Shown: positions 639 through 28,694 of the stretch, one piece after another | How positions within the stretch are numbered: position 1 is the first letter of the stretch | Layout of the letters: each line of letters opens with the position of its first letter | Assembly: GCF_000014785.1 (NCBI RefSeq) | Contig: NC_008340.1 | Location: forward strand, 2,670,001 to 2,702,000 | Source of the DNA: Alkalilimnicola ehrlichii MLHE-1 | GTDB lineage: Bacteria; Pseudomonadota; Gammaproteobacteria; Nitrococcales; Halorhodospiraceae | DNA: 32,000 nt | Direction of reading: 5' to 3' | The notes under the pieces: generated by a model | What the model was told of the DNA's origin: nothing | Databases searched by the model: none | Seen by the model: only the letters and a program-made list of their open reading frames with translations | Made by a program: the position numbers and the translations under genes

Positions 639-2450
639 ATGCCCGAGATACTGCGCAAAACCCTGGACCTGCTCACCGCCCGCGAGAAGCGCCGTGGCGC
701 GCTGGTGCTGGCGATGGTGGTGTGCATGGCGTTGCTGGAGACGGCGGGGGTGCTGTCGGTGGTGCCCTTTCTGGCGGTGCTGGGCAACCCGGAGGTGGTG
801 CACAACCAGCCGTTGCTGGCGGCCGCCTTCCGCTGGTCCGGGCTGGAGCGGGTGCAGGCGTTTCTGATCCTGCTGGCGCTGCTGGTCTTCCTGCTGCAGG
901 TGGTGGCGGCGGGTTTCCGTATGCTCACCCATTTCGTGCTCAACCGCTATATCGAGGGCCGCCGCCACAGCCTCAGCCAGCGGCTGCTGGAGACCTACCT
1001 GCGCCAGCCCTACACCTTCTTTCTCAACCGCAACAGCGCGGACATGACCAAGAGCATCCTCTCGGAGGTGGACATGTTCGTGCTGACGGTGATGCGCCCG
1101 CTGCTCTTCGCCACCGCCTACGCCATTGTCGCGCTGGCGATGATCGCCCTGCTGCTGTTCATCAACCCGTTGCTGGCCCTGGCGGTGGCGACCATCGTCG
1201 GCGGGCTGTACGCGCTGATGTTCCTGTCGGTGCGCGGCTGGCTGGGGCGGATCGGCCGCGAGCGCAGCCAGGCCAACCGCGAGCGCTTCGCCACCACCAG
1301 CGAGGTGCTGGGCGGGATCAAGGACATCAAGCTGCTGGGCCACGAGCAGGCCTATCTTTCGCGCTTCCGGCCGGCTTCGGCGCGCTTCACCCGCCACCTG
1401 GCCACCAGCGAGACGCTGGCCCAGATCCCGCGCTTCGCCATCGAGACGGTGGCGCTGGGCGGGGTGTTGATTCTCACCGTGGTGCTGATGGCCACCCACG
1501 GCGACGTGGGCGCCATGCTGCCCACCCTGGGGCTGTACGTATTCGCCGGTTACAAGCTGCTGCCGGCCATGCAGCATATCTATGCCGGGGTCAGTCGCAT
1601 GCGCTTTTCCGGTCAACTGGTGGCGGACATCCACGACGACCTGCGCGAGCGCCCGCGCCTGGCGCCCATCGACGGCGCACCGCCGGCACCGTTGCGGCCG
1701 CGGCGGGAGATCGCCCTGGAGGGCATCGATTTCACCTACCCCCAGGCCGATACCCCGGCCCTGCAGGGGATCGACCTGCACATCCCGGTGGGCCGGACGG
1801 TGGGGGTGGTGGGCAGCTCGGGCGCGGGCAAGACCACGCTGATCGATGTGCTGCTGGGGCTGCTGCTGCCCCAGGCGGGGCACATCCGGGTGGATGGCAC
1901 CGCCATCGATGACCGGCAGCGCCCGGCCTGGCGGCGGGCGTTGGGCTACGTGCCCCAGCATATCTTCCTGAGCGATGCCAGCGTGGCGGAGAACATCGCC
2001 CTGGGGGTGCCGCTGGAGCGCATCGACCACGCCGCGGTGGTGCGCTGCGCCCGGCTGGCGCACATCCACGAGTTCGTCTCGGGGTCGCTGCCCCGGGGTT
2101 ACGACACCCCGGTGGGTGAGCGGGGGGTCCGGCTCTCCGGTGGCCAGCGCCAGCGGCTGGGCATCGCCCGGGCGCTCTACCGCGACCCGGCGATCCTGGT
2201 CTTCGACGAGGCCACCAACGCCCTGGACAACGAGACCGAGCGGGAGGTGATGGCCGCGCTCTACGGCCTGGCGCGCAGCAAGACCATCATCATCATCGCC
2301 CACCGGCTCTCCACGGTGGAACGCTGCGACCACATCGTGATGCTGGAGCAGGGCCGGATCATCGACAGTGGCACCTTCGCCGAGCTGCTGCACAACCCGC
2401 GCTTCCGCCGTCTGGCCCAGGCCCGGCCGGGCGAGCCCGCCACCGGATGA
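639..2450 (+). CDS. Fused permease/ATPase ABC exporter (MsbA/PglK-like half transporter); no N-terminal C39 peptidase domain
   Basis: N-terminal half is hydrophobic. Walker [13 protein letters not shown] signature LSGGQRQR, Walker B ILVFDEAT and H-loop IIIAHRLS are all present. AAGGA lies 5 nt upstream of the ATG. Confidence 0.9.
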
Positions 2451-2453
2451 GCC

Positions 2454-3449
2454 ATGCTCCACCTGGTCACCCGCGCCGACTGTGATCACACCGCGCGCCG
2501 CTTCCTGTCGGCGGCGGGCCGCCGCCTGCGCGGGGTGCGCTTGCTGCACTATGAAACGCTGCTGCGGCGCCGGCGCGCCCCGTTGGGCCATTACATCTTC
2601 ACCGATTACGACCGGCTGACCGGCGCCGACGTGGACGCGGTGATCGCCCTGGCCGACGCGCTGGCGGCGCGCCGGCCGGACCTGCGCCTGCTCAACCACC
2701 CGCGCCGGGTGCTCGAGCGGGTGCCCCTGCTCTGCCGGCTGGAGGCGCTGGGGCGGAACGATTTCGGCGTGGTGCGGCTGGACACCGGGGCCCGGCCCCG
2801 GCGCTACCCGGTGTTCATCCGCAGTGAGGACGGCTGCGGCGGCCCGGAGACGGGGCTGATCCACGACGAGGCCGAGTTCGATGCCGCGCTGCGCGAGCTG
2901 GACCGCCGCGGGCTGACGCTGAAGCGGCGGATCGCCGTGGGCTTTTGCGCCGAACCCGACGCGCAGGGGCGCTATCGCAAGTACGGCGCGATGAACATCG
3001 GCGGGCGCATCATCCCGCAGCACCTCCATTGCAGCACGGACTGGAACGTGAAGTGGGGCCAGACCCGCTACCAGGCGGCGCTGGCGGCCGAGGAGGTGGA
3101 CTATCTGCGCGATAACCCCCACCGGGAACAGTTGCTGGAGATCTTCCGCATCGCCGGCATCGATTACGGGCGCATCGACTACGGCTTCGCCCGCGGCCGA
3201 CTGCAGACTTACGAGATCAACACCAACCCGGCCCTGCCGCGCTTTACCAGCCGCCATGGGCTGCGCGCCGGCCGCCACGACCTGATCCGGCCGGCGATGA
3301 TCGAGGCCTTCCAGGCCCTGGACGATCCGCCGGTGCCCCGGGGCCGGGTGCGCTTCCGCTGGGCGGACGACGGCGGGCCGAGCCTCTCCGCGCTGCGGCG
3401 CTCGATCCTCTACCGCCGGCTGCGCCAGCTCTACCACCGCTGGCTGTAG
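2454..3449 (+). CDS. ATP-grasp-like protein, paralog A (paralog of 11475..12446)
   Basis: ATG is 3 nt after the ABC stop codon. C-terminal block GIDYGRIDYGF…YEINTNP resembles the ATP-grasp Mg/ATP-binding E-x-N region. It aligns by eye with the second copy over most of its length. Confidence 0.55.
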   Translation: MLHLVTRADCDHTARRFLSAAGRRLRGVRLLHYETLLRRRRAPLGHYIFTDYDRLTGADVDAVIALADALAARRPDLRLLNHPRRVLERVPLLCRLEALGRNDFGVVRLDTGARPRRYPVFIRSEDGCGGPETGLIHDEAEFDAALRELDRRGLTLKRRIAVGFCAEPDAQGRYRKYGAMNIGGRIIPQHLHCSTDWNVKWGQTRYQAALAAEEVDYLRDNPHREQLLEIFRIAGIDYGRIDYGFARGRLQTYEINTNPALPRFTSRHGLRAGRHDLIRPAMIEAFQALDDPPVPRGRVRFRWADDGGPSLSALRRSILYRRLRQLYHRWL

Positions 3450-3496: not shown

Positions 3497-4897
3497 ATGG
3501 ATGACCACACCGCCCCAGGAGGGAGCATGCGCCGTCCAGACGAGGGCACCCTTGCCCGTATCGCCGAGGCCCTGGCATTCACGCCCACGGCAGCCTACTC
3601 GGCCCCCCACGATTACCCGCACGCCGCGAACACCTTCGAGCCGGCGCCCCGGCTGGCCCGGGAGCGGGTGGACGCGGACGTCTACCGACTCTATGCCCAT
3701 GTGCCCTTCTGCAACTACGCCTGCTCCTTCTGCTGCTACGCCAAGAAAGTGGGTGTGGAGCGCGAGCAGATGGCGCGCTACGTGGCGACCCTGAAGCGGG
3801 AGCTGGAGTGGATTCCCGAAGGCACCCCGGTGAACCAGTTCTTTATCGGCGGCGGCACCCCCACGGCGCTGCCCGCCGACCTGCTTGATGAACTACTGGG
3901 CGCCATCGCCGGGCGGATGCCCTACCACGGCGACCCGGTGCACACGGTGGAGGCCTCGCCGGAGTCCATCAGCGACGCCCATCTGGCGGTGTTGCAGCGC
4001 CACGGGGTGCGGCGGGTGAGCATGGGGGTGCAGAGCCTGGATGATGAGGTGCTGGATTCGGTACGCCGCAGCCACGGGCCGGATCTGGCGCTGGAGACCT
4101 GCCGGCGGATTATCGATGCCGGCCTGATCCTCAACATCGATCTGATATACGGCCTGCCGGGCCAGACCCACGCCGGCTTCCGGCGCGATTTCCAGCGGGT
4201 GGCGGACGCCGGGGTGCACGCGGTGACCGCCTACAACCTGCGCCTGAATGAACGCACCCCGGTATCCCGGGCCCTGAGCCCGGGGGAGCGGTTCGACATC
4301 GCCGGGCTGATGGGGTGGCGGGCCTTCGTCCGTGACACCGCCGCCGAGTTCGGCTTCTCCCAGACCCGCTGGCATACCTTCAAGCGCCTGGACACCATCG
4401 CCGCCCGCCACCAGTGGCTGCCCACCGCCGGGGCGGACATGCGGGGCCACCAGTTCGGCATCGGCATGAGCGCCCGTTCGTCGCTGGGCCACAACGTCTA
4501 CCGCAACCACCACAATCTGGAAACCTACATGGCGCGGGTGCGGGACGGCGAAAGCCCGGTGCAGGAGGTGATCCGCCTGGGGCCGCAGGACCTGCGCACC
4601 CAATTCATCGCCCGCAGCCTGGGCGACGGCCAGGTGCTGTCCAAGGCCCGCTACGCCGAGGTGTTCGGCAACGCCATCGAGGCCGACCACGGCGAGACGC
4701 TGGCCCGGTTGGCCGCCGGCGGGCTGTTGGCCGACACCGAATCCTCGGTCAGCCTCACCGAGGACGGCCGCCTGTTGCACGACCTGGTCACCCTCTCCTT
4801 CTACCCCGGGCCGGCCCGGCAGCGGCTGCTGCAGCGGCTGGACACCTTCCAACTCACCGATCTGAGTGACCGCCGGCCCCGGCCAGCCCTTCAATAA
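3497..4897 (+). CDS. HemN-like radical SAM enzyme (coproporphyrinogen dehydrogenase / class C methyltransferase family)
   Basis: CxxxCxxC motif in VPFCNYACSFCCY and HemN-type FFIGGGTP motif. An alternative start at ATG 3527 is preceded by AGGAGG. Confidence 0.85.
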   Translation: MDDHTAPGGSMRRPDEGTLARIAEALAFTPTAAYSAPHDYPHAANTFEPAPRLARERVDADVYRLYAHVPFCNYACSFCCYAKKVGVEREQMARYVATLKRELEWIPEGTPVNQFFIGGGTPTALPADLLDELLGAIAGRMPYHGDPVHTVEASPESISDAHLAVLQRHGVRRVSMGVQSLDDEVLDSVRRSHGPDLALETCRRIIDAGLILNIDLIYGLPGQTHAGFRRDFQRVADAGVHAVTAYNLRLNERTPVSRALSPGERFDIAGLMGWRAFVRDTAAEFGFSQTRWHTFKRLDTIAARHQWLPTAGADMRGHQFGIGMSARSSLGHNVYRNHHNLETYMARVRDGESPVQEVIRLGPQDLRTQFIARSLGDGQVLSKARYAEVFGNAIEADHGETLARLAAGGLLADTESSVSLTEDGRLLHDLVTLSFYPGPARQRLLQRLDTFQLTDLSDRRPRPALQ

Positions 4898-6044
4898 AGC
4901 GCCGGGCACCGCGGGCCCCGTCCAGATCGACGCCGGGGTCCGCGGGCGGCGCGTCCCGCAGCGCCCGCAGCTCATCGGCCACTGCCGCCACCGAGAAGGC
5001 CTCCGGGCGAAGCAGCCGCGCCAGCCCCCGTGCCTGCAGCCGTTCCGCCCGGCGTAACTGGTCGGACATGGCGGTATTGGGGACCAGTAGGGCCGGCCGG
5101 CGAAGCTGCAGCAACTGAGCACAGGTGTTGTAGCCGGCACAACTGATGGACAGCGCCGCCCCGCGCAGCCAGGCGCTGTACGCTGGGCCGAAGGGGTGCA
5201 ACGACAGCGCCGGCTGCCCCGCCACTGCGCGCGCCAGGGCCGGGTCCGGCGGGCCCAGGCCGCTGAACAGCGCCAGCGGCAGATCATCCAGGCCGGCCCG
5301 ACGACGGATGGCCGGCCAGTGCGCCGCCAGCCGGGCGAGCAGCGCCGCGGCGTCGCGCCCGCCGCCGATGCTGGCCACGGCGTAGGGCGACGGACCGGCA
5401 GTGGCGCCGGCCGCCCCTGCCGGCGCATCCGGGGCCAGGTCCGGACCTGGTGGGACCAGCCCGGTATGGCCCACCGACAGGCGGATGCGGCCGGCGGCCG
5501 GAAAGGCCTCCTCCAGCCGGCACAGGCCGGGGTCGGCGTGGACCATCACGGCGTCGAACCACTGGTGCAGCCGCGCCAGCACCTCCCGGACGTAGTCGCC
5601 GGCCGGGACTGGCTCGTGGCGGGTCTGCAGCGGGATATCCCGCACCGAGCAGACGGCGAGCAGGGCCGGGTTGCGCCGGCGGGCGGCCGCCAGCAGCCCG
5701 GTGACCTCCGCCCCCAGGCCCCACTTGCTGAAGGGGTAGTGCTCGACGATGACCACGTCCGGGGCCAAGCGGGCCACCGCGCCGGCCAGCCGCCGGGCGC
5801 GCTCCGGCCAGACAGCGGCGGCGGGCCTGCCGTCCAGGGTCTCCAGCCGGCCCTCCCGGCGCCGGAGGCGGGGCAGTGCCAGCAGCCGTCCGCCACCGGG
5901 GTCGGCGCCGGGAATGGACCGACCGCCGTCGCTGAGCCAGACCGTGTGGTGGCGCGCCAGCTCCCGGGTCAGCGCGAGGCCGCGCATGTAGTGGCCGACC
6001 CCGCTGAGGTGCTGGCAGTGGAAGAGGATGCGCAGGCGGGTCAC
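4854..6044 (-). CDS. GT-B fold glycosyltransferase (MurG/GT28-like C-terminus; resembles COG4671-type predicted glycosyltransferases)
   Basis: N-terminus ILFHCQHLSGVGHYMR and C-terminal CAGYNTCAQLL…PALLVP pattern. GTG start lies 10 nt after the Rieske stop codon. Confidence 0.65.
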   Translation of the reverse strand: MTRLRILFHCQHLSGVGHYMRGLALTRELARHHTVWLSDGGRSIPGADPGGGRLLALPRLRRREGRLETLDGRPAAAVWPERARRLAGAVARLAPDVVIVEHYPFSKWGLGAEVTGLLAAARRRNPALLAVCSVRDIPLQTRHEPVPAGDYVREVLARLHQWFDAVMVHADPGLCRLEEAFPAAGRIRLSVGHTGLVPPGPDLAPDAPAGAAGATAGPSPYAVASIGGGRDAAALLARLAAHWPAIRRRAGLDDLPLALFSGLGPPDPALARAVAGQPALSLHPFGPAYSAWLRGAALSISCAGYNTCAQLLQLRRPALLVPNTAMSDQLRRAERLQARGLARLLRPEAFSVAAVADELRALRDAPPADPGVDLDGARGARRFIEGLAGAGGHSDR

Positions 6045-6054
6045 CGGGTCGCGC

Positions 6055-7287
6055 TCAGGGCTGGAGCAGCGCGATGATCTGCTCTTTGAGCGGGCTGTAG
6101 CGCACGTGGCTCATCTCGATGGCCTCGCGCAGCAGCCGGCGGCCGTCGCCGAGCTTGTTCCGCTCTTGGGCGAAGCGGATGACCCGGTTTTCCGCCTCAT
6201 CGCGGATCACGCCCATGGGATCCAGCCCGTCGGCCACCCGCTGCGCCTGCTCCAGCAGCAGGCGCCGGTAGAGCACGATGCCCTTGTCCGAGGCCACCAG
6301 CCGCTCGCGGGTGCGGTCGGCGATGGCGCCCTGACTCACCCAGACCATGATGTCGCCGCCATCGACGAAGTCGACGATGTAGTCGCCGTGCTCATCCCGC
6401 CAGGGCACCGGGTAAAGGGGGATCTCGCGCTGGGGCGGCGCGCTGCGGCCCTCCGGCGGGAGGTAGCAGGCATACCAGTAGTGGCGGGTGTGGGTGTCAT
6501 CCATCGGCACGCGGAACTGGAAGCGGTGCTGGTTGCCGGTGCCCACCCTTAAGGCGCAGGGGAAGATCAGCGGATGGCCGGTGCGCCAGTCTTCGTCCTC
6601 CTCGCTGCCCCCCGCCACGATCCGCCGCTTGATGATGCCGTACTCAAAGACATCGAACCCGATGCGCTGGTGGTGCTTAAGGTACTGGGTGGGGGCGGGC
6701 TCGCCGCGCTCGCTGCGCACCCCGGCCAGGTGGTGGCCGTGGAGCCACTCCACGTGCGCCGGGTCGACGCTGTTCTCCATGATCTGCAGCCAATTGCAGG
6801 GCAACTCGGCGACACCGATGTCGCGCAGGGCATCGTCCTGCAGCAGCAGGTCGTAGCGGGGCAGCAACGGCGCGGGATCGGGCCCGATGTAGGCAAACAC
6901 CAGGCCGCCCAGCTCCTGGACCGGGAAACCCCGGGTGGCCGCGCGCCGGAGCAGCGCCGGCTTCTGTCGCGGCTCGGCGGGCATGGCCAGGCAATGGCCG
7001 TGGTGGTCGAACTTCCAGCCGTGGTAGGGGCAGGCGATGCCCTCCTCATCCACGTGGCCGCACCGCAGGGAGGCGCCGCGGTGGGTGCAGTGCTCGTCGA
7101 TCAGCCCCAGCCCGCCGGCCGGCGTGCGGAAGAGCACCAGGTCCTCGCCCAGCAGCCGGCGGGCCAGGGCCCGGCCGGGACGCACCTCCACGCTGGCGGC
7201 CAGCGGCCACCAGTAGCGGCGCAGCAGCTCGCCCATGGTCGTGCCGGGGCCGATGCGGGTGAGGGTCTCCTGGCGCTCCGGGGTCAT
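6055..7287 (-). CDS. Rieske [2Fe-2S] non-heme iron oxygenase, alpha-subunit type
   Basis: Rieske motif CTHRG…(17)…CPYHGW. Mononuclear iron motif ENSVDPAHVEWLH (E-x3-D-x2-H-x4-H). The ATG overlaps the methyltransferase stop codon (ATGA). Confidence 0.85.
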   Translation of the reverse strand: MTPERQETLTRIGPGTTMGELLRRYWWPLAASVEVRPGRALARRLLGEDLVLFRTPAGGLGLIDEHCTHRGASLRCGHVDEEGIACPYHGWKFDHHGHCLAMPAEPRQKPALLRRAATRGFPVQELGGLVFAYIGPDPAPLLPRYDLLLQDDALRDIGVAELPCNWLQIMENSVDPAHVEWLHGHHLAGVRSERGEPAPTQYLKHHQRIGFDVFEYGIIKRRIVAGGSEEDEDWRTGHPLIFPCALRVGTGNQHRFQFRVPMDDTHTRHYWYACYLPPEGRSAPPQREIPLYPVPWRDEHGDYIVDFVDGGDIMVWVSQGAIADRTRERLVASDKGIVLYRRLLLEQAQRVADGLDPMGVIRDEAENRVIRFAQERNKLGDGRRLLREAIEMSHVRYSPLKEQIIALLQP

Positions 7288-8027
7288 GGCCGCCCCTGCC
7301 CCCGCGCGCCGCTCTCCGGCGCGCCACCGGCTTCGGCACCCGGGAAGCGCCGGCGCAGCCCCTCCGGGTCACCGGGTCGACCCTGGACCAGGGTGAGCCC
7401 GCTGGCCACCGGCAGGGTGAACAGCTCCAGCCCGGGATCGGCGCGCAGGGCCGCCATCAAGTCGCAGACGCTGTGCTGGTAGGCCCGGTCCTCGCCGTAG
7501 AAGGTGCTGGTCCGGCGTACGGTGCTGTCGTGGAACAGGGTGATGGCGCCGGTATCCAGCTTGGGGAGGAAGGCCAGGTAGTCGTAACAGGCCTGTGCCG
7601 CGGTGTGCAGTCCGTCCACCATCAGCAGCCCCACCGCGCCCAGTCCGGCGTAGGCCGGGTCGGCCGCGAAGGACTGCGTGGTGTGGCGGTGGTGGCGCAC
7701 GTTGGGTGTGCCCAGGGCGTCGAAATGGGCCTCCACGGCGCCGGGATCGGCCCAGAAGCCGTCGGCGAAGGAGGGGTCGATGAAGTGGACCTCGCCGCGC
7801 TCCTGGTTGTCGTTCAGCGCGCGGGCGATGACGCTGGGCGCGAAGCCCCGGTAGGACCCGATGACCACCGCCCGCTCCGGCCTAAGGATGCGGCCCAGGG
7901 CGTAGTAGAGCCAGCCCAGGCCCAGGTTGTGGTCGGCCAGGCGCTGGCCGTGCCCCATGCGCAGCAGATCCGGCTGCTCGAACAGCCGGCCGATGAAGCC
8001 ATCCAGGGTGGTGGCGGGGTCGGTCAT
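7284..8027 (-). CDS. Probable class I SAM-dependent methyltransferase (CmcI/TylF-like)
   Basis: VVIGSYRGFAPS glycine-rich motif at the position expected for a SAM-binding loop. Size is about 250 aa. Translationally coupled to the Rieske gene. Family call is by recall. Confidence 0.5.
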   Translation of the reverse strand: MTDPATTLDGFIGRLFEQPDLLRMGHGQRLADHNLGLGWLYYALGRILRPERAVVIGSYRGFAPSVIARALNDNQERGEVHFIDPSFADGFWADPGAVEAHFDALGTPNVRHHRHTTQSFAADPAYAGLGAVGLLMVDGLHTAAQACYDYLAFLPKLDTGAITLFHDSTVRRTSTFYGEDRAYQHSVCDLMAALRADPGLELFTLPVASGLTLVQGRPGDPEGLRRRFPGAEAGGAPESGARGQGRP

Positions 8028-8136
8028 CTAGGGTGTTTTCCCGGCATTGGCGGTGAATGGGTTGGAATCAGGCCTTCTAGGACTAATCGACCATGGGCCC
8101 ACCGCTGTCAAGCGGTTGCGGCCCGCCACCCGCGGC

Positions 8137-10188
8137 TCAGTGGGCGTCATCGCCCGGGCCCGGGTCGTCCGGCGGCGCGTAGACGGCCTGCGCCCGGGTG
8201 TAGAACAGCGGGTCCCAGACGCCGTGCTCCGGGGGGCCGATGGCGGAGGCCTTCCAGCCGCCGAAGGGTGCCCGCGGGTCGATGGCCGCGCCGGCGCCGT
8301 TGAGTCGCAGGAGACCGGCCTGCGCCTGGGCCAGGAAGCGCCGCTGCACCGCCGGATCGTTACTGTACAGGGTCGCGGCCAGCCCCTGGGGCACGCCGTT
8401 GAGCCGGTCCAGCGCCTCGTCGAGGTCCGCCACCGGCACCAGCACCACCACCGGGCCGAAGCTCTCCTGCTGCATGCACTCGGCGTCCGGGGGCAGGCCG
8501 GTGAGCACAGTGGGGGCGTACCAGTTGCCCTGGGCCCAAGCCGGCGGCACCCGGCCGCCGCAGAGCACATTGGCGCCCGCGGCGCGGGCGCGGGCGACGA
8601 TGCCCTCGATCCGCGCCTGCGCGGCCCGGGAGACCAGCGGACCGACAACGGTGTCCGGCGCCTCCGGCCGGCCCGGGCGCAGCGCCTGCACCCGGGCCAG
8701 GAAAGCCTCGGTGAAGCGGTCCAGCACCGAGGAGGCCACCAACAGGCGGCGCACCGCGGTGCAGCGCTGGCCGGCGAAGCTGAAGGCGGCCCGGGCGAGT
8801 TCCCCGGCGGCCCGTTCCGGGTCGGCGTCGGCCATGACCAGGGCGGCGTTGTTGCCGCCCAGCTCCGCCTGCAGGGGCGTGCCGTGCAGCGCGCAGGCGG
8901 CCGCCACCTGGCGCCCGGCGGTGATGGAGCCGGTAAAGCTCACCGCCTGCACCCGGGCATCGGCGGCCAGGGTGTCGCCGGTGGCCGCCCCGCCCTGCAC
9001 CAGGTTCAGCACCCCCGGGGGCAGGCCGGCGTCCAGACCGGTCTGCATCAGCATCCGCGCCAGTTCCGGGGCCTCCGGCGCCGGCTTCCAGACCACGCTG
9101 TTGCCCCAGCGCAGGGCCGGTCCGATCTTGCCCAGGGGCAGCGCCAGCGGGTTGTTCCAGGGGGTGATGGCGGCCACCACCCCCCGGGGCCGGTGGCGCA
9201 CGCTCACCCCCGGCGCCAGGGCCCCGGGCGGGGTCGGTGCCATGGGCTCGAGGCTGGTGGCCAGCAGGGCCAGGGCGTAGTCGAACTCCGCCCCGGCCTC
9301 GAGGGAGGGCTTGCCCACCTCCCGGATCAATGCGGCCACCAGTTCGTGGCGCTGCTGTTGAAGCCGCGCTTCCCAGGCCTTCAGCATGGCAATGCGCTGG
9401 CTGTCCGGCAGTGCCGCCCAGCCCGCCCCGGCCGCCCGGGCGGCCTCCACCGCCGCGCCGACCAGGGGGGCGTCGGCGGCGCCGGTCCGGCTGAGGATCC
9501 GCCGGTGGTCACAGGGGTCGTGGCGGGTGAGCTGCTCCGGCGCGGCCGCCCGATGCCATTGCCCGGCGATGCAGGCGGCGGGCTGCAGGTCGCGCCCGGG
9601 TGTCGGCCTGCGCGTTGCCGCCCCGCCGTCATCCGGCTCACCCAGGCGCGCCCGGATGTCCGCCGTGGTCAGCGCGGCGCAGGCCCGATCCGCTAGGTGC
9701 CTCAGCGCCAGGCGGGCGTGCAGCGGGTCGTAGGAGGCCACCGCATCCACCGCCAGCCAGACCTGGAAACCGGCCTGGTAGGCGTCCAGCACGGTGGCCT
9801 GGACACAGGCATGGGTGTGCAGGCCACTGACGACCACTGTGTCCACGCCCTGCTCGCCCAGCCACGCCGCGGTCCCGGCCCCGCCGAAAGCACTGTAGTA
9901 GGGCTTGGCCAGGACGGCTTCACCCGGTGCCTCGGCCAGGGCCGGCGGTGGGGCCGCCCCGGGGGTGCCGCCGACGCAGGCCCAGTGGGCCCGGCGCTGC
10001 CAGTGGGGCATGCGGTTATGGCCGTCCGCGGCGATAAGGGTGCGGACATGGCACACCGGCAGGCTGCGGCGACGGAAGCCGTCCAGCAGCGTCCGGGCCT
10101 GCCGGATGGCGGCCCCGGCCTCGGCCGCATCAACCCCCCGGTCCAGGTAGTCCTGTTGCCAGTCCACCAACAACAAGGCGGCACGCAT
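8137..10188 (-). CDS. Fusion protein: N-terminal isochorismatase-family cysteine hydrolase plus C-terminal aldehyde dehydrogenase
   Basis: N-terminus has LLLVDWQQDY and VSGLHTHACVQATVLDA, typical of the isochorismatase fold. C-terminus has ALDH motifs ELGGNNAALV and FSFAGQRCTAV (catalytic Glu and Cys). I prefer ATG 10188, 2 nt after the upstream stop codon, over the track start at 10233. Confidence 0.8.
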   Translation of the reverse strand: MRAALLLVDWQQDYLDRGVDAAEAGAAIRQARTLLDGFRRRSLPVCHVRTLIAADGHNRMPHWQRRAHWACVGGTPGAAPPPALAEAPGEAVLAKPYYSAFGGAGTAAWLGEQGVDTVVVSGLHTHACVQATVLDAYQAGFQVWLAVDAVASYDPLHARLALRHLADRACAALTTADIRARLGEPDDGGAATRRPTPGRDLQPAACIAGQWHRAAAPEQLTRHDPCDHRRILSRTGAADAPLVGAAVEAARAAGAGWAALPDSQRIAMLKAWEARLQQQRHELVAALIREVGKPSLEAGAEFDYALALLATSLEPMAPTPPGALAPGVSVRHRPRGVVAAITPWNNPLALPLGKIGPALRWGNSVVWKPAPEAPELARMLMQTGLDAGLPPGVLNLVQGGAATGDTLAADARVQAVSFTGSITAGRQVAAACALHGTPLQAELGGNNAALVMADADPERAAGELARAAFSFAGQRCTAVRRLLVASSVLDRFTEAFLARVQALRPGRPEAPDTVVGPLVSRAAQARIEGIVARARAAGANVLCGGRVPPAWAQGNWYAPTVLTGLPPDAECMQQESFGPVVVLVPVADLDEALDRLNGVPQGLAATLYSNDPAVQRRFLAQAQAGLLRLNGAGAAIDPRAPFGGWKASAIGPPEHGVWDPLFYTRAQAVYAPPDDPGPGDDAH

Positions 10189-10190
10189 GG

Positions 10191-11339
10191 TCAGGCCCGC
10201 GCCCCCTGCAGTACTTCGGTCAACGACGCGCACAGGGCCTGGCCCATGGCCCGGGTGCCCACCGCGGTGGGCTGCGCGCCCTGAATATCGGCGGTGCGCA
10301 CGCCCCGGGCGAGGGTCCGGGCGATGGCCGTCTCCAGGGCATCGGCCAGTGCCGGCAGGCGGAAACTCTCGCGCAGCATCATGGCCAGCGAGCAGACCTG
10401 GCCGATGGGATTGGCCCGGTCCCGGCCGGCCAGGTCCCAGGCGGCACCGTGGGCGGTCTGGTAGACCGCCTGGCCGGCGGCGCCGTAGTTGCCGGACCAG
10501 GACATGCCCCGCGAGCCCATGAGCAGGCTGCCGCAGTCGCCCAGGATATCGCCGAACATGTTGGGGCAGACGATGACGTCGAACTGCCGGGGGTCGGCGA
10601 TGAGCTGGTAGGCGGCGTTGTCCACCTCCAGGGTCCGGCAGCGCACGGCGCCGTGCTCGCCGGCGACCGCGGTCAGGGCGTCGTGCCAGAGGGCGCTGAT
10701 GGCAGGCACGCCGCCCGGTTTGGTGACAACGACCAGGTCACCGCGCCGCTGCCCGGCCAAGCGGAGGGCCGTGCGCAGGATGCGCTCCACCTCGTCGGCC
10801 CGGTAGCGGCAGACCTGGTAGGCGCTGCGCGCCGCACCCTCGCCTTCACTGCCCCACTCGCCACAGTAGAGCCCGCTGGCATTCTCGCGCACGATGAGGA
10901 CGTCCGCCGAGCGGGCGGCCTCCGGGCGCAGCACGCCGGCATCAGCCAGGGCGGGCCAGTGGCGCAGCGGGATCAGCTTGCAGTAGAGGTCGAAGTGCCG
11001 GCGCAGGTCGTAGACGAAGCGCCCGCCCCCGGGGCCACAGAGCACCGCCCCGCCCTGAGCGAAGACCTGAGCGCAGAAGTCGCGCACCTCCGGGGTCAAG
11101 CCGCGACCAGTGAGGCGCTCGGCCTGCCGGCCGATGGGCCCGCCGGTGCGCACCTCGAAGCGCTGGCCGGTGGCCTCGCCGAGGAGCCGCAACAGCGAAA
11201 GAGCAACGTCGATGACTTCCGGGCCGACGCCCTCCCCCGGCAGCACCCCGACCAGAAAGGCCTCACCGCGCTCCGTGCCCGTGCCACGGGGCGGTGCATG
11301 GTCGGTGCCGGGGTGCGACGGGCAGGCTTCGGGGTGCAC
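10191..11339 (-). CDS. Isocitrate/isopropylmalate dehydrogenase family oxidative decarboxylase (IPMDH/tartrate-DH-like)
   Basis: VLPGEGVGPEV N-terminal motif and family signature NMFGDILGDCGSLLMGSRGM. The GTG start at 11339 gives an extension of about 20 aa, so the start is uncertain. Confidence 0.8.
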   Translation of the reverse strand: MHPEACPSHPGTDHAPPRGTGTERGEAFLVGVLPGEGVGPEVIDVALSLLRLLGEATGQRFEVRTGGPIGRQAERLTGRGLTPEVRDFCAQVFAQGGAVLCGPGGGRFVYDLRRHFDLYCKLIPLRHWPALADAGVLRPEAARSADVLIVRENASGLYCGEWGSEGEGAARSAYQVCRYRADEVERILRTALRLAGQRRGDLVVVTKPGGVPAISALWHDALTAVAGEHGAVRCRTLEVDNAAYQLIADPRQFDVIVCPNMFGDILGDCGSLLMGSRGMSWSGNYGAAGQAVYQTAHGAAWDLAGRDRANPIGQVCSLAMMLRESFRLPALADALETAIARTLARGVRTADIQGAQPTAVGTRAMGQALCASLTEVLQGARA

Positions 11340-11474
11340 GGGCTGCGCTTCTCCTCGAGGCAGTGGCGTTCGCGGTGACGGTGGCCCGGCGCCGGAGCGC
11401 CCGCCGTTGTCGAAAGCATAGTCGGGCGGGGACCGGGGTAAAGCGCCCGCGCCGGGCTTGGGGGCCGCGCCCGT

Positions 11475-12446
11475 TCAGGGCAGACGCGGGGTGCGCCGCC
11501 ACTCCCGGCCACGCCAGAGGTCGGCGAGACGGTCACGCAGCGAGCGCGGGTCGTGCAACGGCACCGGCCGGCCCGAGGCGGGCCCGTCGATCTCCGCCAT
11601 GGCCGCGATGAGCTGCCGCTGGGCGCTGCGGTAGCTGTCGAGACGAATGGGATAGGGGTGGGTGCGCAGCCGCCCCACGTGGGGGTTGGTGTTGATCTCA
11701 TAGACCTGGGGCCGGCCGCCGATTAGGGCGAAGTCGGCCCGGCCGTAATCGATATGACCGGTCTCGAAGGCGGGCGCGAGTGCATCGGCAAAGGGATTGT
11801 CGTTGACCAGCCGGAGCTCATCCTCGTACAGCGCCTGGCCGGCGATGCCGTTCTGGCCGTATTTCGCCGCCCAGTGATCCTGGTGGGCGCACAGCGCCGG
11901 GACGATTCGCCCGCCCACCCGGTAAGCGGCCAGCTTGCGGTAGAGCCCGTCGGCCACCGGCTCGGCGTGGAACTGGACGACCATCAGCTCGCGGCGGGGT
12001 ATCCCCCGGTCGATCGCCTCGGCCACCGCCTGCGCCAGGGACTCGGGGGTGTCCAGGCACCCGGTCAACGGGCCGCGGTGGGCGGACTCGGTGCGCAGGA
12101 AGACGGGGTACGCCCCGTCCGGCGGCGTCTCATCGACGCGCCAGACACCGAAGTCGTTGAACCGCCGGGCATGCAGATCGCGCAGCAGTTCGAAGCGTGA
12201 GCGCACCCGTGCCGGGTCGTTGAGCACGCACGCGCCGGCCTCGCGCAGTTGCCGGTGGATCCGCCCGGCCATCTCCAGGTCCCAGAAGTTGAGGCGGTCG
12301 AAATCGGTGAAGATGTAGGTGGCACGAGGCAGCCGCCGCCGGCGGAACAGCCGGTGGTAGGACATGACCCGGAAGTCGAAGGCATCGGATTGCTGCAGCG
12401 GGCGGTGGGTGTGCGCGTGCGCCTGGGTGCTGAACAGGACAATCAT
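11475..12446 (-). CDS. ATP-grasp-like protein, paralog B
   Basis: Shares blocks with 2454..3449: YIFTD[YF]DRL, NDFGV, YPVF[IL]R, AEP…YRK…GGRI[IV]P, IDYGR.D, YEINTNP. Its start overlaps the HExxH gene stop codon by 4 nt. Confidence 0.55.
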   Translation of the reverse strand: MIVLFSTQAHAHTHRPLQQSDAFDFRVMSYHRLFRRRRLPRATYIFTDFDRLNFWDLEMAGRIHRQLREAGACVLNDPARVRSRFELLRDLHARRFNDFGVWRVDETPPDGAYPVFLRTESAHRGPLTGCLDTPESLAQAVAEAIDRGIPRRELMVVQFHAEPVADGLYRKLAAYRVGGRIVPALCAHQDHWAAKYGQNGIAGQALYEDELRLVNDNPFADALAPAFETGHIDYGRADFALIGGRPQVYEINTNPHVGRLRTHPYPIRLDSYRSAQRQLIAAMAEIDGPASGRPVPLHDPRSLRDRLADLWRGREWRRTPRLP

Positions 12447-13438
12447 CCGGTGGCGTGGTCCATGTACGCTTTGGCGTTGGCCATGAGGGCGCGCCCGTGC
12501 CGGCTCAGAAGGCCGTGGGCGGCGACCACCTCGTGGCCGGCGCGGAAGTTGGCGGCGTCCTCCGCCATGGCCTGGCGCGCACCGGCCCGCTCGGCCTCGT
12601 CCAGCAGCCCCGAGTCCAGCAACCGGCCCATGGCCCAGTGCATGCGGGCGGAGACGAAGGTGGCGTGGTAGATGCCGTCCATGGGCCGGGGGTCTTGGCG
12701 CAGCGGCGAGGGGTAGAGCTCCTCGTCATGATTGAGGACCAGCGGGGCCTCGGTGCAGAAGCCGAACAGCAGGCTGTGCGCGCTCTCGTGGGCGATGACC
12801 TCGGCCATGGCAATGCGGTCGGGATGCGCCCCGGCGTTGAGAAACAGCGCCCCCCAGAGCTGAAAGTGGGAGCCGCCGTGGAACTCGCCGGCGTCATGGT
12901 CGCCACCGGCCACGCCGACCACGTGGTGGACGATGGCCTCCACCTCGCCGGCCAGCTCCGGCGCGGCCTGCCGCAGCAGCCCAAGGCCCTCGTGGTAGCG
13001 CTGCACGAAGGCCGTCTCCAGTTCCGCCGGCGGCGGATGCAGCGTCAGCCCCGTCGGCATCTCCGCCATCATCTTATCCTGGTAGAGGCGACTGGTGGCG
13101 CACGCCGATGGCGGTCGCAGCCCCTCGACCCGCTGGCCATCCGGCAATGGCGGTTCGTTGCCGATCCTCTGAAAGGCGGTCCGGGCCTGCGCCAGGTCGC
13201 CGTCCAGCAGGTCGATGACCAGGTCGTAGTAGCGGCCGAACAGGCTCGGGGCGTGCGCCTGTCCCGTGGCGAGCCGGCTGAGCAGGGGATCCAACGACAG
13301 GTCGGGCAGCGGGGTGTGGGCGTTGAAGCGCTCGAAGACGTACCCGAGGCTGGCGCCCAGCTCACGGTGCATGGCCTGATCCAATTGCCCCGCCCGTTCC
13401 GGATCGGGCTCGAACCCATAGTGCACCGTGGCCGTCAC
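12443..13438 (-). CDS. HExxH-motif protein (putative metal-dependent peptide-modifying enzyme, possibly aKG-HExxH / TIGR04267-like)
   Basis: VIAHESAHSLLF motif in a soluble protein with real-protein composition. GTG start with AGGGAG 6 nt upstream. Family membership was not verified. Confidence 0.6.
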   Translation of the reverse strand: MTATVHYGFEPDPERAGQLDQAMHRELGASLGYVFERFNAHTPLPDLSLDPLLSRLATGQAHAPSLFGRYYDLVIDLLDGDLAQARTAFQRIGNEPPLPDGQRVEGLRPPSACATSRLYQDKMMAEMPTGLTLHPPPAELETAFVQRYHEGLGLLRQAAPELAGEVEAIVHHVVGVAGGDHDAGEFHGGSHFQLWGALFLNAGAHPDRIAMAEVIAHESAHSLLFGFCTEAPLVLNHDEELYPSPLRQDPRPMDGIYHATFVSARMHWAMGRLLDSGLLDEAERAGARQAMAEDAANFRAGHEVVAAHGLLSRHGRALMANAKAYMDHATG

Positions 13439-13491
13439 GCGCCACTCCCTTGCTGTTGTTACTCGGTTGTCGCGCTCGGTCCCGCCGGTGG

Positions 13492-13653
13492 TCAGGTGAC
13501 CTTCATGCCCACCTTGCCGCCGACTTTCGCCCCGATGGTGGTGGTCCGGTCGAGTACCTTGTCGCCCACCTTTGCGCCGGTTCTGACGCTGCTGTCGAGC
13601 CGGAAGCCCAGCAGGCGGCGGGCATCCAGATTGATGCCGTCGGTCTTGTCCAT
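13492..13653 (-). CDS. Unlisted small ORF (53 aa), candidate precursor/scaffold peptide: MDKTDGINLDARRLLGFRLDSSVRTGAKVGDKVLDRTTTIGAKVGGKVGMKVT
   Basis: Hand-translated, ATG 13653 to TGA 13492. GAGGGGA (13660-13666) lies 6 nt upstream of the ATG. About 47 of 53 codons end in G or C. Same strand as the HExxH gene and 53 nt upstream of it. Confidence 0.5.
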   Translation of the reverse strand: MDKTDGINLDARRLLGFRLDSSVRTGAKVGDKVLDRTTTIGAKVGGKVGMKVT

Positions 13654-13706
13654 GGTCGATCCCCTCAGGTTACCGGCCGTCCGGCCGGGGAATTGTTATC
13701 AAACCT

Positions 13707-13741
13707 CGCTTCAAGACTAGCCGGCTGCGGGATCAACGCAA
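13707..13741 (-). promoter_or_regulatory. Possible sigma70-like promoter for the small-ORF operon (TTGCGT-16 nt-TAGTCT on the minus strand)
   Basis: Motif match only, in the 170-bp lower-GC divergent intergenic region 13654-13823. -35 at 13736-13741 and -10 at 13714-13719. Confidence 0.2.
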
Positions 13742-13823
13742 GGCAGCGGGGAGGATCAACCTGTACTAATAGGGTAAACCGTCTAGGCTTGCGCAAAAGT
13801 GACAACGCCCAAGGGGATCGGCG

Positions 13824-15023
13824 ATGACGGCGCGCCGCGTGCAACTGCTCAAGGTGGTCTCGGGGCTGGATATCGGGGGGGTGCGTAGCGCAGAGCTCGG
13901 TTTCACCGCCGAGTTGCAGGCGCGGGGGGTCGGCGTTGGCGGCGTAATCGTGACCGGGGGCGCCATGGCCGCCCGTTACGCCCGGCTGTTTGACGGCCAC
14001 TGGCTGCTGGACACCCGTCTGCCCGAGTTCCGAGGCGGACGGTGGGAGCGGCTGCGCCGAACGGTGGTAAACCTGGGGCGCAGCCGGCAGGGCGCCCGGC
14101 GGCTGGCCGGTGACCTTCGCGGGACCCGGTGGGCGTCGGCGGGCACGGTGGTGGCGGTGCGCCATGCGCCGCTGCTGCCTCTGGCCGCGCTGCTGGCCCG
14201 CCGGCTCGACCTCCCGTTGCTCTGGCACATGCCCAACCCGGTCCACGACCGGCTCGGCCGGGCCTATTTCCAGGCCCTGCTGCGTCTGGCCGGCGGCACG
14301 GCGGTGGGCAATAGCCGCTACACCCTGGCCAGCCTCGGCGCCGGCGATGGCCCGGTGATCTATCCCGGCTTCTCCCCCGCCCGGGTGGCCCTCGACGAGA
14401 CCGCCCCCGAGCTGCGGGCGTCGCTGGGCATCCCGGCCGCGGCGCCGGTATTCGCGGTGGTGGCCCGGCTCACCCCGGACAAGGCCACTGACTGGGTGCT
14501 GGCGGCCTTTCTCGATTCGGCGGCCTTTCGCAACGGGGCGCATCTGCTGATCGCCGGCGGCCCGCTGGACTCCCGGTTCGCCCTTGACCTAAGGGCTCAC
14601 GCCGGTGAGGCGGGCGACGGCCGGGTGCACTTTCTCGGCGAGGTCGAGCAGGTGGCGCCGGTTTACCGGGCCGCGGATGTGCTGGTGGCGGGCCGGCGCA
14701 CGGTGGAACCCTTCGGGATCTCGCTGGTGGAGGCCATGGCCTCGGGACTGCCGGTCATCGCCCCGGGCGGCGGGGGGCCGGACGAGGTCGTCACCGACGG
14801 GGTGACCGGGTGGTTGCTGCCGGACCGGGGCGTGGCAGCCTATACCCGGGCGCTGGACCGCGCCTGGTCGGACCGCGCCCGCTGGCCGGTGATGGGTGGG
14901 CAGGCGCGCACCGCCGCCGCGCCGTTCAGCCTGGCGCACCAGGCCGGCCGCTACCTGCAACTGGTGCGGGCGGTGCTGGACCCGGACGGCGACGACCCGG
15001 CGCCCATGGTGAGGGCGCGTTGA
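13824..15023 (+). CDS. Glycosyltransferase family 4 (GT-B, retaining type)
   Basis: EPFGISLVEAMASGLPVIA (E-x7-E motif). Confidence 0.85.
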   Translation: MTARRVQLLKVVSGLDIGGVRSAELGFTAELQARGVGVGGVIVTGGAMAARYARLFDGHWLLDTRLPEFRGGRWERLRRTVVNLGRSRQGARRLAGDLRGTRWASAGTVVAVRHAPLLPLAALLARRLDLPLLWHMPNPVHDRLGRAYFQALLRLAGGTAVGNSRYTLASLGAGDGPVIYPGFSPARVALDETAPELRASLGIPAAAPVFAVVARLTPDKATDWVLAAFLDSAAFRNGAHLLIAGGPLDSRFALDLRAHAGEAGDGRVHFLGEVEQVAPVYRAADVLVAGRRTVEPFGISLVEAMASGLPVIAPGGGGPDEVVTDGVTGWLLPDRGVAAYTRALDRAWSDRARWPVMGGQARTAAAPFSLAHQAGRYLQLVRAVLDPDGDDPAPMVRAR

Positions 15024-15029: not shown

Positions 15030-15737
15030 ATGGGGGACGACGTGACGGACAGCATCGCCGTGTTACAGGCCCGGACCACCTCCCGCCGACTGCCCGCCAA
15101 GGTGCTGCTTCCGGTGGGGGGACTGCCGCTGGTGGTGCTGGCCGCCCGGCGCGCGGCGAACACCGGCCGGCGGGTGCTGGTGGCCACCTCCACCGATCCC
15201 TCGGACGACGAGCTGGCGCGGGTGGTGCGCGCGCATGGGCTGGCCTGTGCGCGCGGCAGCCTGGAGGACACCCTGGGGCGGTTCGTCCAGGTGCTGACCG
15301 ATTACGCCGATGACACGCTGGTCTTCCGCCTGACCGCGGACAACGGACTGCCCGACGGGCGCCTGCTGGATGACCTGGCCGACGACCTCCACCGGCGGGA
15401 CCTGGACTACCTGGCCTGCAACGGGGCGCCCTGTGACCTGCCCGACGGTTTCAGTGCCGAGGTGACCCGGCTGCGGCACCTGCGCGCCGCCCACCGCGGG
15501 CCCACCACGCCCTACGACCGCGAGCACGTCACGCCCGCGGTGATCCGCGCCCGGGGACAGGCCTGGTTCACCGGCTACGCCGGTCGCGGGCTGGCGGGCC
15601 AGCGCTGCACCATCGACACCCTGGATGACTACCTGGCCGTCTGCCGGCTGTTTGTGGGCTACGCCGACCCGGTCGGCACGCCAGCGACGCGCCTGCTGGA
15701 GGCCTTGGCCACCCCGGCCCGCGATGCCCATGCCTGA
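15030..15737 (+). CDS. SpsF-like cytidylyltransferase (acylneuraminate/CMP-sugar cytidylyltransferase family)
   Basis: N-terminus IAVLQARTTSRRLPAKVLLPVGGLPLV is typical of the SpsF/COG1861 family. Lies in the same operon as PseG-like and NeuB-like genes. Confidence 0.7.
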   Translation: MGDDVTDSIAVLQARTTSRRLPAKVLLPVGGLPLVVLAARRAANTGRRVLVATSTDPSDDELARVVRAHGLACARGSLEDTLGRFVQVLTDYADDTLVFRLTADNGLPDGRLLDDLADDLHRRDLDYLACNGAPCDLPDGFSAEVTRLRHLRAAHRGPTTPYDREHVTPAVIRARGQAWFTGYAGRGLAGQRCTIDTLDDYLAVCRLFVGYADPVGTPATRLLEALATPARDAHA

Positions 15738-20253: not shown

Positions 20254-20254
20254 C

Positions 20255-21061
20255 TCAGCCCTCCTCAGGGGCCCGGAAGGGCAGGCCGGCGAACTGCTCG
20301 ATATCACTGAGCATGGCCCGGTGGCGCTTCTCAGCGACACCGCTGTAATCCTTGAGAATGGGAACGGTCGTACCGTCCCGCAGGACGAGCAGCGGCCGGA
20401 CCTGGCGTTGCCGCCCCTGCTTGCGATAGCGCACCTGCAGGGTGGTGTGATCGATTCGGGCCAGTGGCCAGTCCTGCTGACGCCGGCCCCAGATCCAGCG
20501 TCGCCCGAGGCTCAGCCGGTCCCGTACGCGATCGACCGCCAAACGGCGCTGTGGGGCGCCCCAGAGCAGGCCATACAAGGCGAAACCGCCAAGCAGCCCG
20601 GCCACGGCCAGAACATAGCGGTGATCCTGATAGCGCACGGTGAACGCGCCCCGGGGCGTGTCCAGGTGGGCGTTAATCGCCCGCTGGATCTGTTGCAATT
20701 CGCTGCGCCGGTTGAGCGCGCCGTGGTGCAGGGTCAGCGGGATGGGTTCCCCACTGTGCGGCTGCAGTTCCACCCGAACGCCCGGCGGCGCGGGCAATGC
20801 CCGCTCGCGGCGGGCTCGGCTCTCGCGCAGCACCGCCCCGGACAGGCTGTCGGCCCGTAGCGGGTGGCGGGAGAGCGGCGCCCCGATCGGGCTCTCCCTT
20901 ATCAGCATGCCCTCGTCGTCGACGAAGGACAGAATGCCGCCCGAGGGTACCGCCACCAGCAACGAAACGGCCCCGAGCAGCAGCAGACCGAAGAATATCA
21001 ACTTGCCGGTGAAGCCATTGTGGTACTCCAGCCGGCCACCCATTTCCCTTCTCTTCCGCAT
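20255..21061 (-). CDS. Membrane protein of unknown function (two predicted TM segments)
   Basis: Hydrophobic stretches LIFFGLLLLGAVSLLVAV and YVLAVAGLLGGFALYGLLW. ATG 21061 has GGGGAG 5 nt upstream. Confidence 0.5.
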   Translation of the reverse strand: MRKRREMGGRLEYHNGFTGKLIFFGLLLLGAVSLLVAVPSGGILSFVDDEGMLIRESPIGAPLSRHPLRADSLSGAVLRESRARRERALPAPPGVRVELQPHSGEPIPLTLHHGALNRRSELQQIQRAINAHLDTPRGAFTVRYQDHRYVLAVAGLLGGFALYGLLWGAPQRRLAVDRVRDRLSLGRRWIWGRRQQDWPLARIDHTTLQVRYRKQGRQRQVRPLLVLRDGTTVPILKDYSGVAEKRHRAMLSDIEQFAGLPFRAPEEG

Positions 21062-26997: not shown

Positions 26998-27006
26998 GGC
27001 GTTAGC

Positions 27007-28560: not shown

Positions 28561-28694
28561 TTTAGCCTTCCTTGTGTATTCATCAGATAATCCGAAATTG
28601 ATCCGGTCAGCGGAGTATAGCCCACAAGCAAACAGGTGAGAGGAGACTACGCTCCCTAAATCACAATGCTGTGGCCACGCGGGGTGCCAACCGC

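Follow-up and report, generated by a model that had tools for sequence, protein, structure and literature searches.

In Alkalilimnicola ehrlichii MLHE-1, a row of minus-strand genes starts with a short peptide gene, a HExxH-motif hydroxylase and an ATP-grasp ligase (grasp1) and continues with an IPMDH-like dehydrogenase, an isochorismatase-aldehyde dehydrogenase fusion (IsoALDH), a methyltransferase, a Rieske oxygenase and a GT-B glycosyltransferase. We analyzed this row within a stretch of 32,000 nt (NC_008340.1, assembly GCF_000014785.1, positions 2,670,001-2,702,000 of the forward strand), hereafter the window. The row is likely to consist, with the chemistry that we propose for its parts, of two independently conserved modules arranged head to tail. 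Module A (13653-11475) is apparently a compact, widespread and uncharacterized three-gene cassette for peptide modification. Module B, which comprises the rest of the row (11339-4854, minus strand) and convergent genes on the opposite strand (4897-639, plus strand), looks like a small-molecule tailoring pathway. Separating the two averts a misleading annotation as a hybrid of a small molecule and a ribosomally made peptide that is modified after translation (RiPP), and turns an odd operon into two clean targets.

Gene neighborhoods across genomes

The conservation of module A was assessed in a scan with grasp1 that included one genome per species; the best 80 of 200 loci with an ATP-grasp relative are the basis of all counts given here for the trio of precursor, hydroxylase and grasp1 genes. 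A HExxH homolog adjoins the ATP-grasp gene, in co-directional or divergent orientation, in 74 of the 80 loci. Five of the other six are contigs that end a short distance from the ATP-grasp gene, and the sixth (L036) has full flanks and a precursor gene, with the HExxH gene undetected. At least 68 of the 80 loci have a precursor gene, nearly always upstream of the HExxH gene and in up to six tandem copies. These loci span six phyla, namely Pseudomonadota (Gamma-, Beta- and Alphaproteobacteria), Gemmatimonadota, Cyanobacteria (Synechococcus), Myxococcota, Verrucomicrobiota and Planctomycetota. The methyltransferase, Rieske oxygenase, GT28, radical S-adenosylmethionine (SAM) enzyme, NeuB and cytidylyltransferase are absent from all 80 trio loci, and IPMDH and the isochorismatase(-ALDH) yielded one weak match each.

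A second scan, of metagenomes with the Rieske protein, gave 80 loci, 28 of which, at least 10 kb long, were used for the long-locus counts. The trio is present in none of the 80, and the HExxH protein, precursor, grasp1, NeuB, cytidylyltransferase and GT61 are all missing from the 28. Around Rieske orthologs of at least 58% identity, the array IPMDH-IsoALDH-Rieske-GT28 recurs on metagenome contigs, with or without the radical SAM enzyme and the methyltransferase. In Thioalkalivibrio thiocyanodenitrificans (L084), an ortholog of grasp2, a second ATP-grasp protein that in the window is encoded on the plus strand, lies within 10 kb of homologs of IsoALDH (42% identity), Methyltransf_24 (71%), Iso_dh (50%), Rieske oxygenase (79%), GT28 (52%) and radical SAM enzyme (76%), and no HExxH, precursor or grasp1 gene was found within these 10 kb.

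A preliminary description of this DNA had treated the row as a single co-conserved operon and had proposed to examine, in relatives, the co-occurrence of the trio with the dehydrogenase and oxygenase genes. That comparison went against the single operon: the downstream genes accompany the trio in none or one of the 80 loci, depending on the gene, the Rieske-type loci never include it, and both L084 and a close relative of A. ehrlichii (L089) carry sets of the module B type without the trio.

This relative is represented by two contigs of metagenome ERZ27301263, L089 and L091, with proteins 80-89% identical to those of the window; because they stem from the same sample and have similar identity values, we infer that both come from one organism. 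L091 encodes the C-terminus of the ABC exporter, grasp2 and the radical SAM enzyme, the last convergent with GT28. L089 contains IPMDH-IsoALDH-methyltransferase, preceded upstream of IPMDH by the end of a PseB/CapD-like Polysacc_synt_2 gene. DNA homology between L089 and the window begins 25 nt within the 3' end of grasp1 (position 11499 of the window), and positions 633-660 of L089 hold an eight-codon remnant of this gene (QRRTPRLP and stop, versus WRRTPRLP and stop in the window), which is all that remains of module A. Because this C-terminal motif is conserved among grasp1 orthologs, the simplest reading is a loss of module A in the L089 lineage, with module B retained.

The same comparison brings out a promoter-like element, TTTACC-16 nt-TATGCT, in the 135-nt gap upstream of IPMDH. 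Both hexamers are identical in L089, and the spacer has diverged. The element lies below the threshold of our consensus scan, but its pattern of conservation fits a working promoter for IPMDH.

Several observations weigh against a clean division into two modules. Both lie on the same strand, and the 135-nt gap yielded no terminator, so that read-through co-transcription is possible. Paralogs of the same uncommon ATP-grasp family occur in both modules. The grasp1 remnant in L089 implies that two lineages inherited the adjacency of modules A and B from an ancestor that they share, and the derivation of L089 and L091 from one organism is an assumption. In Thioalkalivibrio ALJT (L004), a homolog (54% identity) of the ABC exporter that is coupled to grasp2 in the window lies beside module A, which makes the assignment of the exporter to one module uncertain. 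Finally, in Ectothiorhodospiraceae (the window and L090), module A is found among GT1 and GT61 genes, which hints at a link to glycans outside our model.

A rival reading is a hybrid cluster in this particular genome, in which a carboxylic acid made by module B (the product of the aldehyde dehydrogenase) would be ligated by grasp2 to the hydroxylated Lys-repeat peptide of module A and exported by the ABC transporter. Such a cluster would explain why the modules adjoin on the same strand and no terminator is detectable, the paralogous ATP-grasp proteins, the coupling of the ABC gene to grasp2 here and its homolog beside module A in L004, and the ancestry of the A-B adjacency in two lineages. 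It is at odds with the occurrence of module B without a nearby module A in L084, in the organism of L089 and L091, and on every Rieske-type contig; with module A lacking module B in at least 74 genomes; with the conserved promoter-like element before IPMDH; and with the absence of grasp2 from most module B loci in the Rieske-type scan. We consider a hybrid of this kind rather unlikely. It would retain the combination of peptide and small molecule envisaged in the preliminary description, with the direction reversed.

In that description, the small peptide either served as a scaffold for a small-molecule pathway or was itself a cross-linked, hydroxylated and possibly glycosylated RiPP. What survives of these readings is the peptide-directed part: the trio is tightly coupled and its small open reading frame (ORF) is not incidental. 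The dehydrogenase, aldehyde dehydrogenase, oxygenase and glycosyltransferase are not conserved with it. One model for the scaffold reading was the pearlin (PEARL) type of scaffold-peptide pathway, reportedly described by Ting and colleagues in 2019 (as cited in PMC13149037). The likeness lies in a small peptide serving as a handle for small-molecule enzymes; here, in contrast, the LanB-like PEARL enzyme is absent, and the small-molecule enzymes are not conserved with the peptide.

Module A: the precursor peptide and its two enzymes

Under the two-module reading, module A amounts to one peptide and two enzymes, is widespread, and has a ligase and a precursor without a match in any curated family library. 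The window precursor is a typical member of its family, with an LDxxRLLGF leader and six Lys in the G-x-K-[V]-G repeats of its core. A search for the leader motif in loci related to the window produced 68 matches in real DNA and one in reversed DNA. True precursors account for 66 of the 68, in 53 loci and the window, whose own precursor is included; a relaxed search added precursors in 15 further loci, among them loci that have four to six copies in tandem. Given the ribosome-binding site, the conserved family and the reversed-DNA control, the small ORF of the window is a genuine precursor, far beyond chance.

The family leader reads [IV]-x-L-D-x-[ST]-[KR]-L-L-G-F, with an invariant G, L-D in 92-94% of the sequences and LDxxKLLGF as the shared stretch. 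The core is a repeat of period four, K-[VIL]-G-[AGS], with 2-15 Lys per core, a further Lys at +/-4 in 53% and Gly at +/-2 in 58-67%. No Asp or Glu follows the first GxK in 24 of the 66 cores, and no acidic column is conserved. The C-terminal residues (A, S, V, L, G and others) show no pattern and are not Glu-rich. As in RiPP cassettes generally, the modifying enzymes adjoin a short precursor whose recognition region is conserved and whose core varies; no protease for leader removal is conserved, and exporters are variable or absent in module A loci.

The family includes some divergent arrangements. Among L038, L054 (Verrucomicrobia), L028 and L060, precursor genes occur in tandem sets of four to six in some loci, and in some there are two copies of the ATP-grasp gene. 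A Hyphomonas clade (L024, L026, L027, L037, L040, L061) encodes divergent precursors, such as MNLKKEMLLGFSN..VGCKGG..RRRGGKKFFKFW, which combine one Cys-Lys motif with a basic/aromatic tail; in these genomes a Wzx-like flippase is always encoded between the HExxH and ATP-grasp genes.

The hydroxylase matches TIGR04267 (aKG-HExxH-type peptide beta-hydroxylase) with 120.3 bits, compared to a cutoff of 40, over profile positions 2-176 of 177, and aligns to ChlH (PDB 8s5f) across the motif (E 7e-7). Residues H217-E218-x-x-H221, R247, R251, H258 and R265 are invariant in 68 orthologs. By every criterion that can be applied to its sequence, this protein is a member of the aKG-HExxH family (TIGR04267/IPR026337); it is of the iron/2-oxoglutarate hydroxylase type rather than the zinc protease type, which corrects its description. 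In precursors bound by their leader, characterized enzymes of this family hydroxylate the beta-carbon of His, Asp, Phe, Gln and Pro; oxidative cleavage of the backbone is an additional activity of one pair (PMC13060819, PMC12636437). ChlH/ChlBH (triceptides), BpmH (biphenomycins), PflC/PosC and PesO share with the module A enzyme the family, the invariant HExxH with downstream Arg/His, and a short precursor encoded next to the enzyme (PMC12636437, PMC13060819). Unlike the ChlH-type systems, module A pairs a stand-alone hydroxylase with an ATP-grasp protein, where the others have a radical SAM, MNIO or asparagine-synthetase-like partner, and its precursors form a new family, with cores in which only Lys, Gly and aliphatic residues are conserved.

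The grasp1 protein is 100% identical to a protein of A. ehrlichii MLHE-1. For grasp1, there was no Pfam or NCBIfam match at E<=0.01 and no significant match in a sequence search of the PDB. Its AlphaFold model (pLDDT 91.6) retrieved RimK, ArgX/LysX and Ddl in Foldseek searches with probability 1.0 and TM scores of 0.45-0.58. Invariant residues of the family are K171, K195, R236, D238, E250 and N252, including the metal motif D238/E250-x-N252; because the fold matches and this motif is kept, the label ATP-grasp is right. The family numbers 641 clusters at E<=1e-30 and 1788 at E<=1e-3. C-terminal TPR repeats are present in 6 of 10 long members checked (P0342, P0348, P0382, P0385, P0402, P0409); such repeats bind peptides, and their presence fits a peptide or protein substrate. 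Of two other long members, P0363 and P0470, one is fused to a GT2 domain and one to a TctC-like domain.

In RimK and the LysX/ArgX-LysW systems, an ATP-grasp ligase attaches an amino acid to a carboxylate of a protein. RimK and LysX/ArgX are the best structural matches to grasp1, with similarity over the whole ATP-grasp, and would share with it the logic of an ATP-grasp enzyme that acts on a small encoded protein or peptide. They differ in that identity to grasp1 is 11-17%, with a TM score of about 0.5 and no sequence-family match, and in that the peptide C-termini of module A are neither conserved nor Glu-rich, the conserved group of the peptide being an amine, not a carboxylate.

We propose that the short precursor is recognized via its conserved leader, [IV]xLDx[ST][KR]LLGF, that the aKG-HExxH enzyme would hydroxylate side chains in the (K-[VIL]-G-x)n core, and that the translationally coupled grasp1 would form ATP-dependent amide bonds on the same peptide, most likely by joining a free carboxylic acid, iteratively, to the epsilon-amines of the repeated Lys. 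Hydroxylation, of Lys or of an aliphatic neighbor, could come before or after ligation, and export would proceed via variable transporters (MOP flippase, ABC, MFS) or none. In the reaction of ATP-grasp ligases, an activated carboxylate is transferred to an amine. Because over a third of the cores (24/66) are acid-free and the C-termini are not conserved, the conserved reactive group of the peptide appears to be the Lys amine, and because Lys is the only conserved functional side chain of the core, ligation of a free acid to Lys is the most economical proposal. Thus, module A probably combines hydroxylation of the Lys repeat with ATP-dependent amide ligation at Lys side chains. Cyclization, or backbone cleavage at Gly/Ala, may occur instead. 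RimK-like C-terminal extension was considered and appears less likely, given the lack of conservation of precursor C-termini.

Among the closest known systems is corallotide, a graspetide with five repeats in which Lys-Asp isopeptide formation is followed by 5-hydroxylysine formation (PMC13097080). Module A likewise has a ribosomal peptide in which Lys motifs are repeated, along with an ATP-grasp protein and an iron/2-oxoglutarate oxygenase, so that it could be read as an ordinary graspetide cassette in which the ATP-grasp enzyme forms Lys-to-Asp/Glu lactams and hydroxylation follows, for which the corallotide repeats with Lys isopeptide and Lys hydroxylation would be a precedent (PMC13097080). 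In contrast to corallotide, however, module A has no conserved acidic partner for Lys: the acid-free cores lack acceptors after the first GxK, and the acidic positions of the others are unconserved. Furthermore, grasp1 has the fold but falls outside the modeled Pfam/NCBIfam ATP-grasp families, the oxygenase belongs to another superfamily than the corallotide enzyme, with a HExxH fold and not a cupin, and the repeat is a Gly-rich tetrapeptide. We therefore hold an ordinary graspetide to be highly improbable, and the canonical form, with Asp/Glu acceptors, was rejected on core composition.

Around the trio, ORFs within 8 kb were clustered, and a Pfam census covered 130 flanking ORFs from 32 loci; no conserved fourth gene was found among these. 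The commonest neighbors are response regulators (5), Wzx-like Polysacc_synt_3 flippases (4), ABC ATPases (4) and GT2 (4). Overall, a flippase of this type is encoded between the HExxH and ATP-grasp genes in 16 loci, and in L001 an MFS transporter gene follows the ATP-grasp gene. PADLOC matched the trio to no defense system, and a repeat search for insertion scars around module A turned up nothing except the grasp1/grasp2 paralogy. In L090 (Thioalkalivibrio), module A lies between two GT61 paralogs (6284-7465 and 11061-12167), each about 38% identical to the GT61 of the window, in a locus rich in glycosyltransferases (GT1, GT2, GT4 and the two GT61).

From such neighborhoods, a role of module A in envelope or glycan biology can be construed, in which the ATP-grasp enzyme would join the carboxylates of sugar acids to peptide Lys, or hydroxylated residues would be glycosylated, as in collagen hydroxylysine, and a flippase would move the conjugate. 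The 16 interposed flippase genes, the resemblance of the ABC transporter in the window to PglK/MsbA, the glycosyltransferases of L090, the GT1, Pse-like and GT61 genes near module A in the window, and the family member fused to a GT2 domain are all compatible with this role. The unbiased census, however, yields GT2 and flippases at 4/130 each, GT61 and NeuB are found in 0/80 trio loci, and the glycosyltransferase neighborhood is confined to one bacterial family, where it may be inherited synteny. Altogether, we assign a low probability to the glycan role.

Returning to Lys-directed amide ligation, we suggest, tentatively, that module A might found a new RiPP class, in which an unmodeled ATP-grasp protein and an aKG-HExxH enzyme modify every repeat, for example, by acylating Lys or hydroxy-Lys, with the sister subfamily of grasp2 as a stand-alone amide ligase recruited to small-molecule pathways. 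Lys acylation by module A, if true, would differ from the cross-linking in graspetides, and the cassette could give aKG-HExxH enzymes a new substrate residue and RiPP ATP-grasp ligases a new reaction type. In the literature, we found no description of a HExxH and ATP-grasp cassette with Lys-repeat precursors, although an earlier bioinformatic mention in a family survey is possible.

Module B: a separately conserved gene set

Module B is a gene set that is conserved on its own and common in environmental bacteria. Our best guess for its product is a methylated, hydroxylated and glycosylated small acid or amide. For the IPMDH-like protein, the leuB model gives 237 bits, short of the cutoff of 353, so that the protein is not LeuB itself. 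The fusion architecture of IsoALDH is common to more than 120 homologs, and its gene directly follows an Iso_dh gene in three unrelated genomes, beside genes for AMP-binding and carrier proteins. The IPMDH-IsoALDH pairing is found in L081-L084, in L089 and in 6 of the 28 long Rieske-type loci; in a Planctomycete, an ATP-grasp family member is encoded beside Iso_dh-IsoALDH. GT28 follows the Rieske gene in 25 of the 80 Rieske-type loci, including nearly all of the long, close ones, and the radical SAM enzyme, which extends module B beyond the span of the preliminary description, occurs in 12 Rieske-type loci and has orthologs in L084 (76% identity) and L091 (88%).

The grasp2 gene sits between the ABC exporter and radical SAM genes. 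The protein itself has no family match and forms an ortholog group of its own. It adjoins module B genes in L084, L091, L082 and L120, and in L091 the ABC exporter is still encoded upstream of it. The new ATP-grasp family is thus shared by a peptide cassette and an unrelated small-molecule cluster. In L085 and L086 (Myxococcota), a gene of the grasp2 type shares an operon with genes for an aminotransferase, two methyltransferases and a 271-aa protein, with an MNIO (MbnB/TglH-like), a P450 and a PALP enzyme in the vicinity, which makes a further type of cluster.

Other genes recur in loci of the module B type. An NTP_transf_5 nucleotidyltransferase is encoded in 5 of 12 such loci (L092-L126) and Sulfotransfer_4 in two; the window has neither. 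Additional glycosyltransferases and methyltransferases are also recurrent. A clean low-GC example, L105, additionally encodes Amidohydro_2, an O-methyltransferase and a UbiE-like methyltransferase.

As a more mundane alternative to its peptide-linked readings, the preliminary description had suggested that the downstream enzymes decorate the neighboring nonulosonic-acid glycan and that the small ORF is incidental. The separateness of these enzymes from the peptide was correctly anticipated; the incidental nature of the ORF was not upheld, and decoration of nonulosonic acid by module B was rejected because NeuB and cytidylyltransferase are found in 0/28 long Rieske-type loci. Isolated hints of the Pse type near module B are CTP_transf_3 in L083 and the PseB-like gene in L089.

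Gene calls and other features of the window

All nine minus-strand ORFs of the row are present, with coding-type G+C content at third codon positions (GC3) of 0.87-0.93, and the gene list, family calls and junctions of the preliminary description were each corroborated by ORF scan, Pfam/NCBIfam, AlphaFold/Foldseek or the sequence itself (Table 1). As read from the sequence, the HExxH/ATP-grasp and methyltransferase/Rieske junctions are ATGA overlaps, the IPMDH-IsoALDH junction is TGAccATG, and 10 nt separate the Rieske and glycosyltransferase genes; the two larger gaps measure 135 nt (11340-11474) and 109 nt (8028-8136). IsoALDH probably starts at 10188 rather than at 10233, given that the database entry has 683 aa. 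A scan of positions 4500-14500 for consensus promoters and terminators found none, and the two gaps fold no better than shuffled sequences; transcript boundaries therefore cannot be set from sequence. An Rfam search of the whole window gave no match.

Table 1. Genes and elements of modules A and B in the window, in coordinate order
Feature	Position	Strand	Basis and remarks
ABC exporter, PglK/MsbA/HepA-like	639..2450	+	All matches below cutoff; 3 nt upstream of grasp2
grasp2, second ATP-grasp of the grasp1 family	2454..3449	+	38% identity to grasp1, BLASTP E 2e-47
HemN/ChuW-like radical SAM enzyme	3497..4897	+	Radical_SAM and HemN_C, STM4012/ChuW-like; convergent with the glycosyltransferase gene
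GT-B glycosyltransferase (Glyco_tran_28_C)	4854..6044	-	Pfam
Rieske non-heme iron oxygenase, LigXa_C/VanA_C catalytic domain	6055..7287	-	Pfam; 79% ortholog in L084
SAM-dependent methyltransferase (Methyltransf_24)	7284..8027	-	Pfam; orthologs 71% in L084, 89% in L089
Isochorismatase-family hydrolase fused to aldehyde dehydrogenase (IsoALDH)	8137..10188	-	Pfam Isochorismatase and Aldedh
IPMDH/tartrate-dehydrogenase-like oxidative decarboxylase	10191..11339	-	Iso_dh E 8e-73
Promoter-like element TTTACC, 16 nt, TATGCT	11415..11442	-	135-nt gap upstream of IPMDH; comparison with L089
grasp1, ATP-grasp ligase without Pfam/NCBIfam model	11475..12446	-	AlphaFold model, Foldseek, invariant residues
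Fe(II)/2-oxoglutarate HExxH-type peptide hydroxylase	12443..13438	-	TIGR04267, ChlH homology, invariant residues
Module A precursor peptide, 53 aa, MDKTDGINLDARRLLGFRLDSSVRTGAKVGDKVLDRTTTIGAKVGGKVGMKVT	13492..13653	-	GC3 0.87, GAGGGG ribosome-binding site, family

A strong hairpin without a U-tract, GGGCCGCAACCGCUUGACAGCGGUGGGCCC, lies at about 8100-8130 (minus strand), directly after the IsoALDH stop codon in the gap that precedes the methyltransferase gene. Positions 15030-19122 (plus strand) and 19132-20340 (minus strand) encode a Pse-like nonulosonic-acid set (cytidylyltransferase, PseG-like and NeuB/PseI-like proteins) and GT61; PseB, PseC and PseH were not found in the window. Within this region, a 474-aa ORF (15625-17049) has no Pfam, NCBIfam or PADLOC match, and its start is probably later than called because it overlaps the cytidylyltransferase ORF by about 110 nt. 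Farther along, the G+C content falls to 0.58 at positions 27001-29000, compared to about 0.72 elsewhere; this stretch includes a minus-strand ORF of 517 aa (27007-28560) with a GC3 of 0.62 and no family match, and the low-GC region may be foreign DNA.

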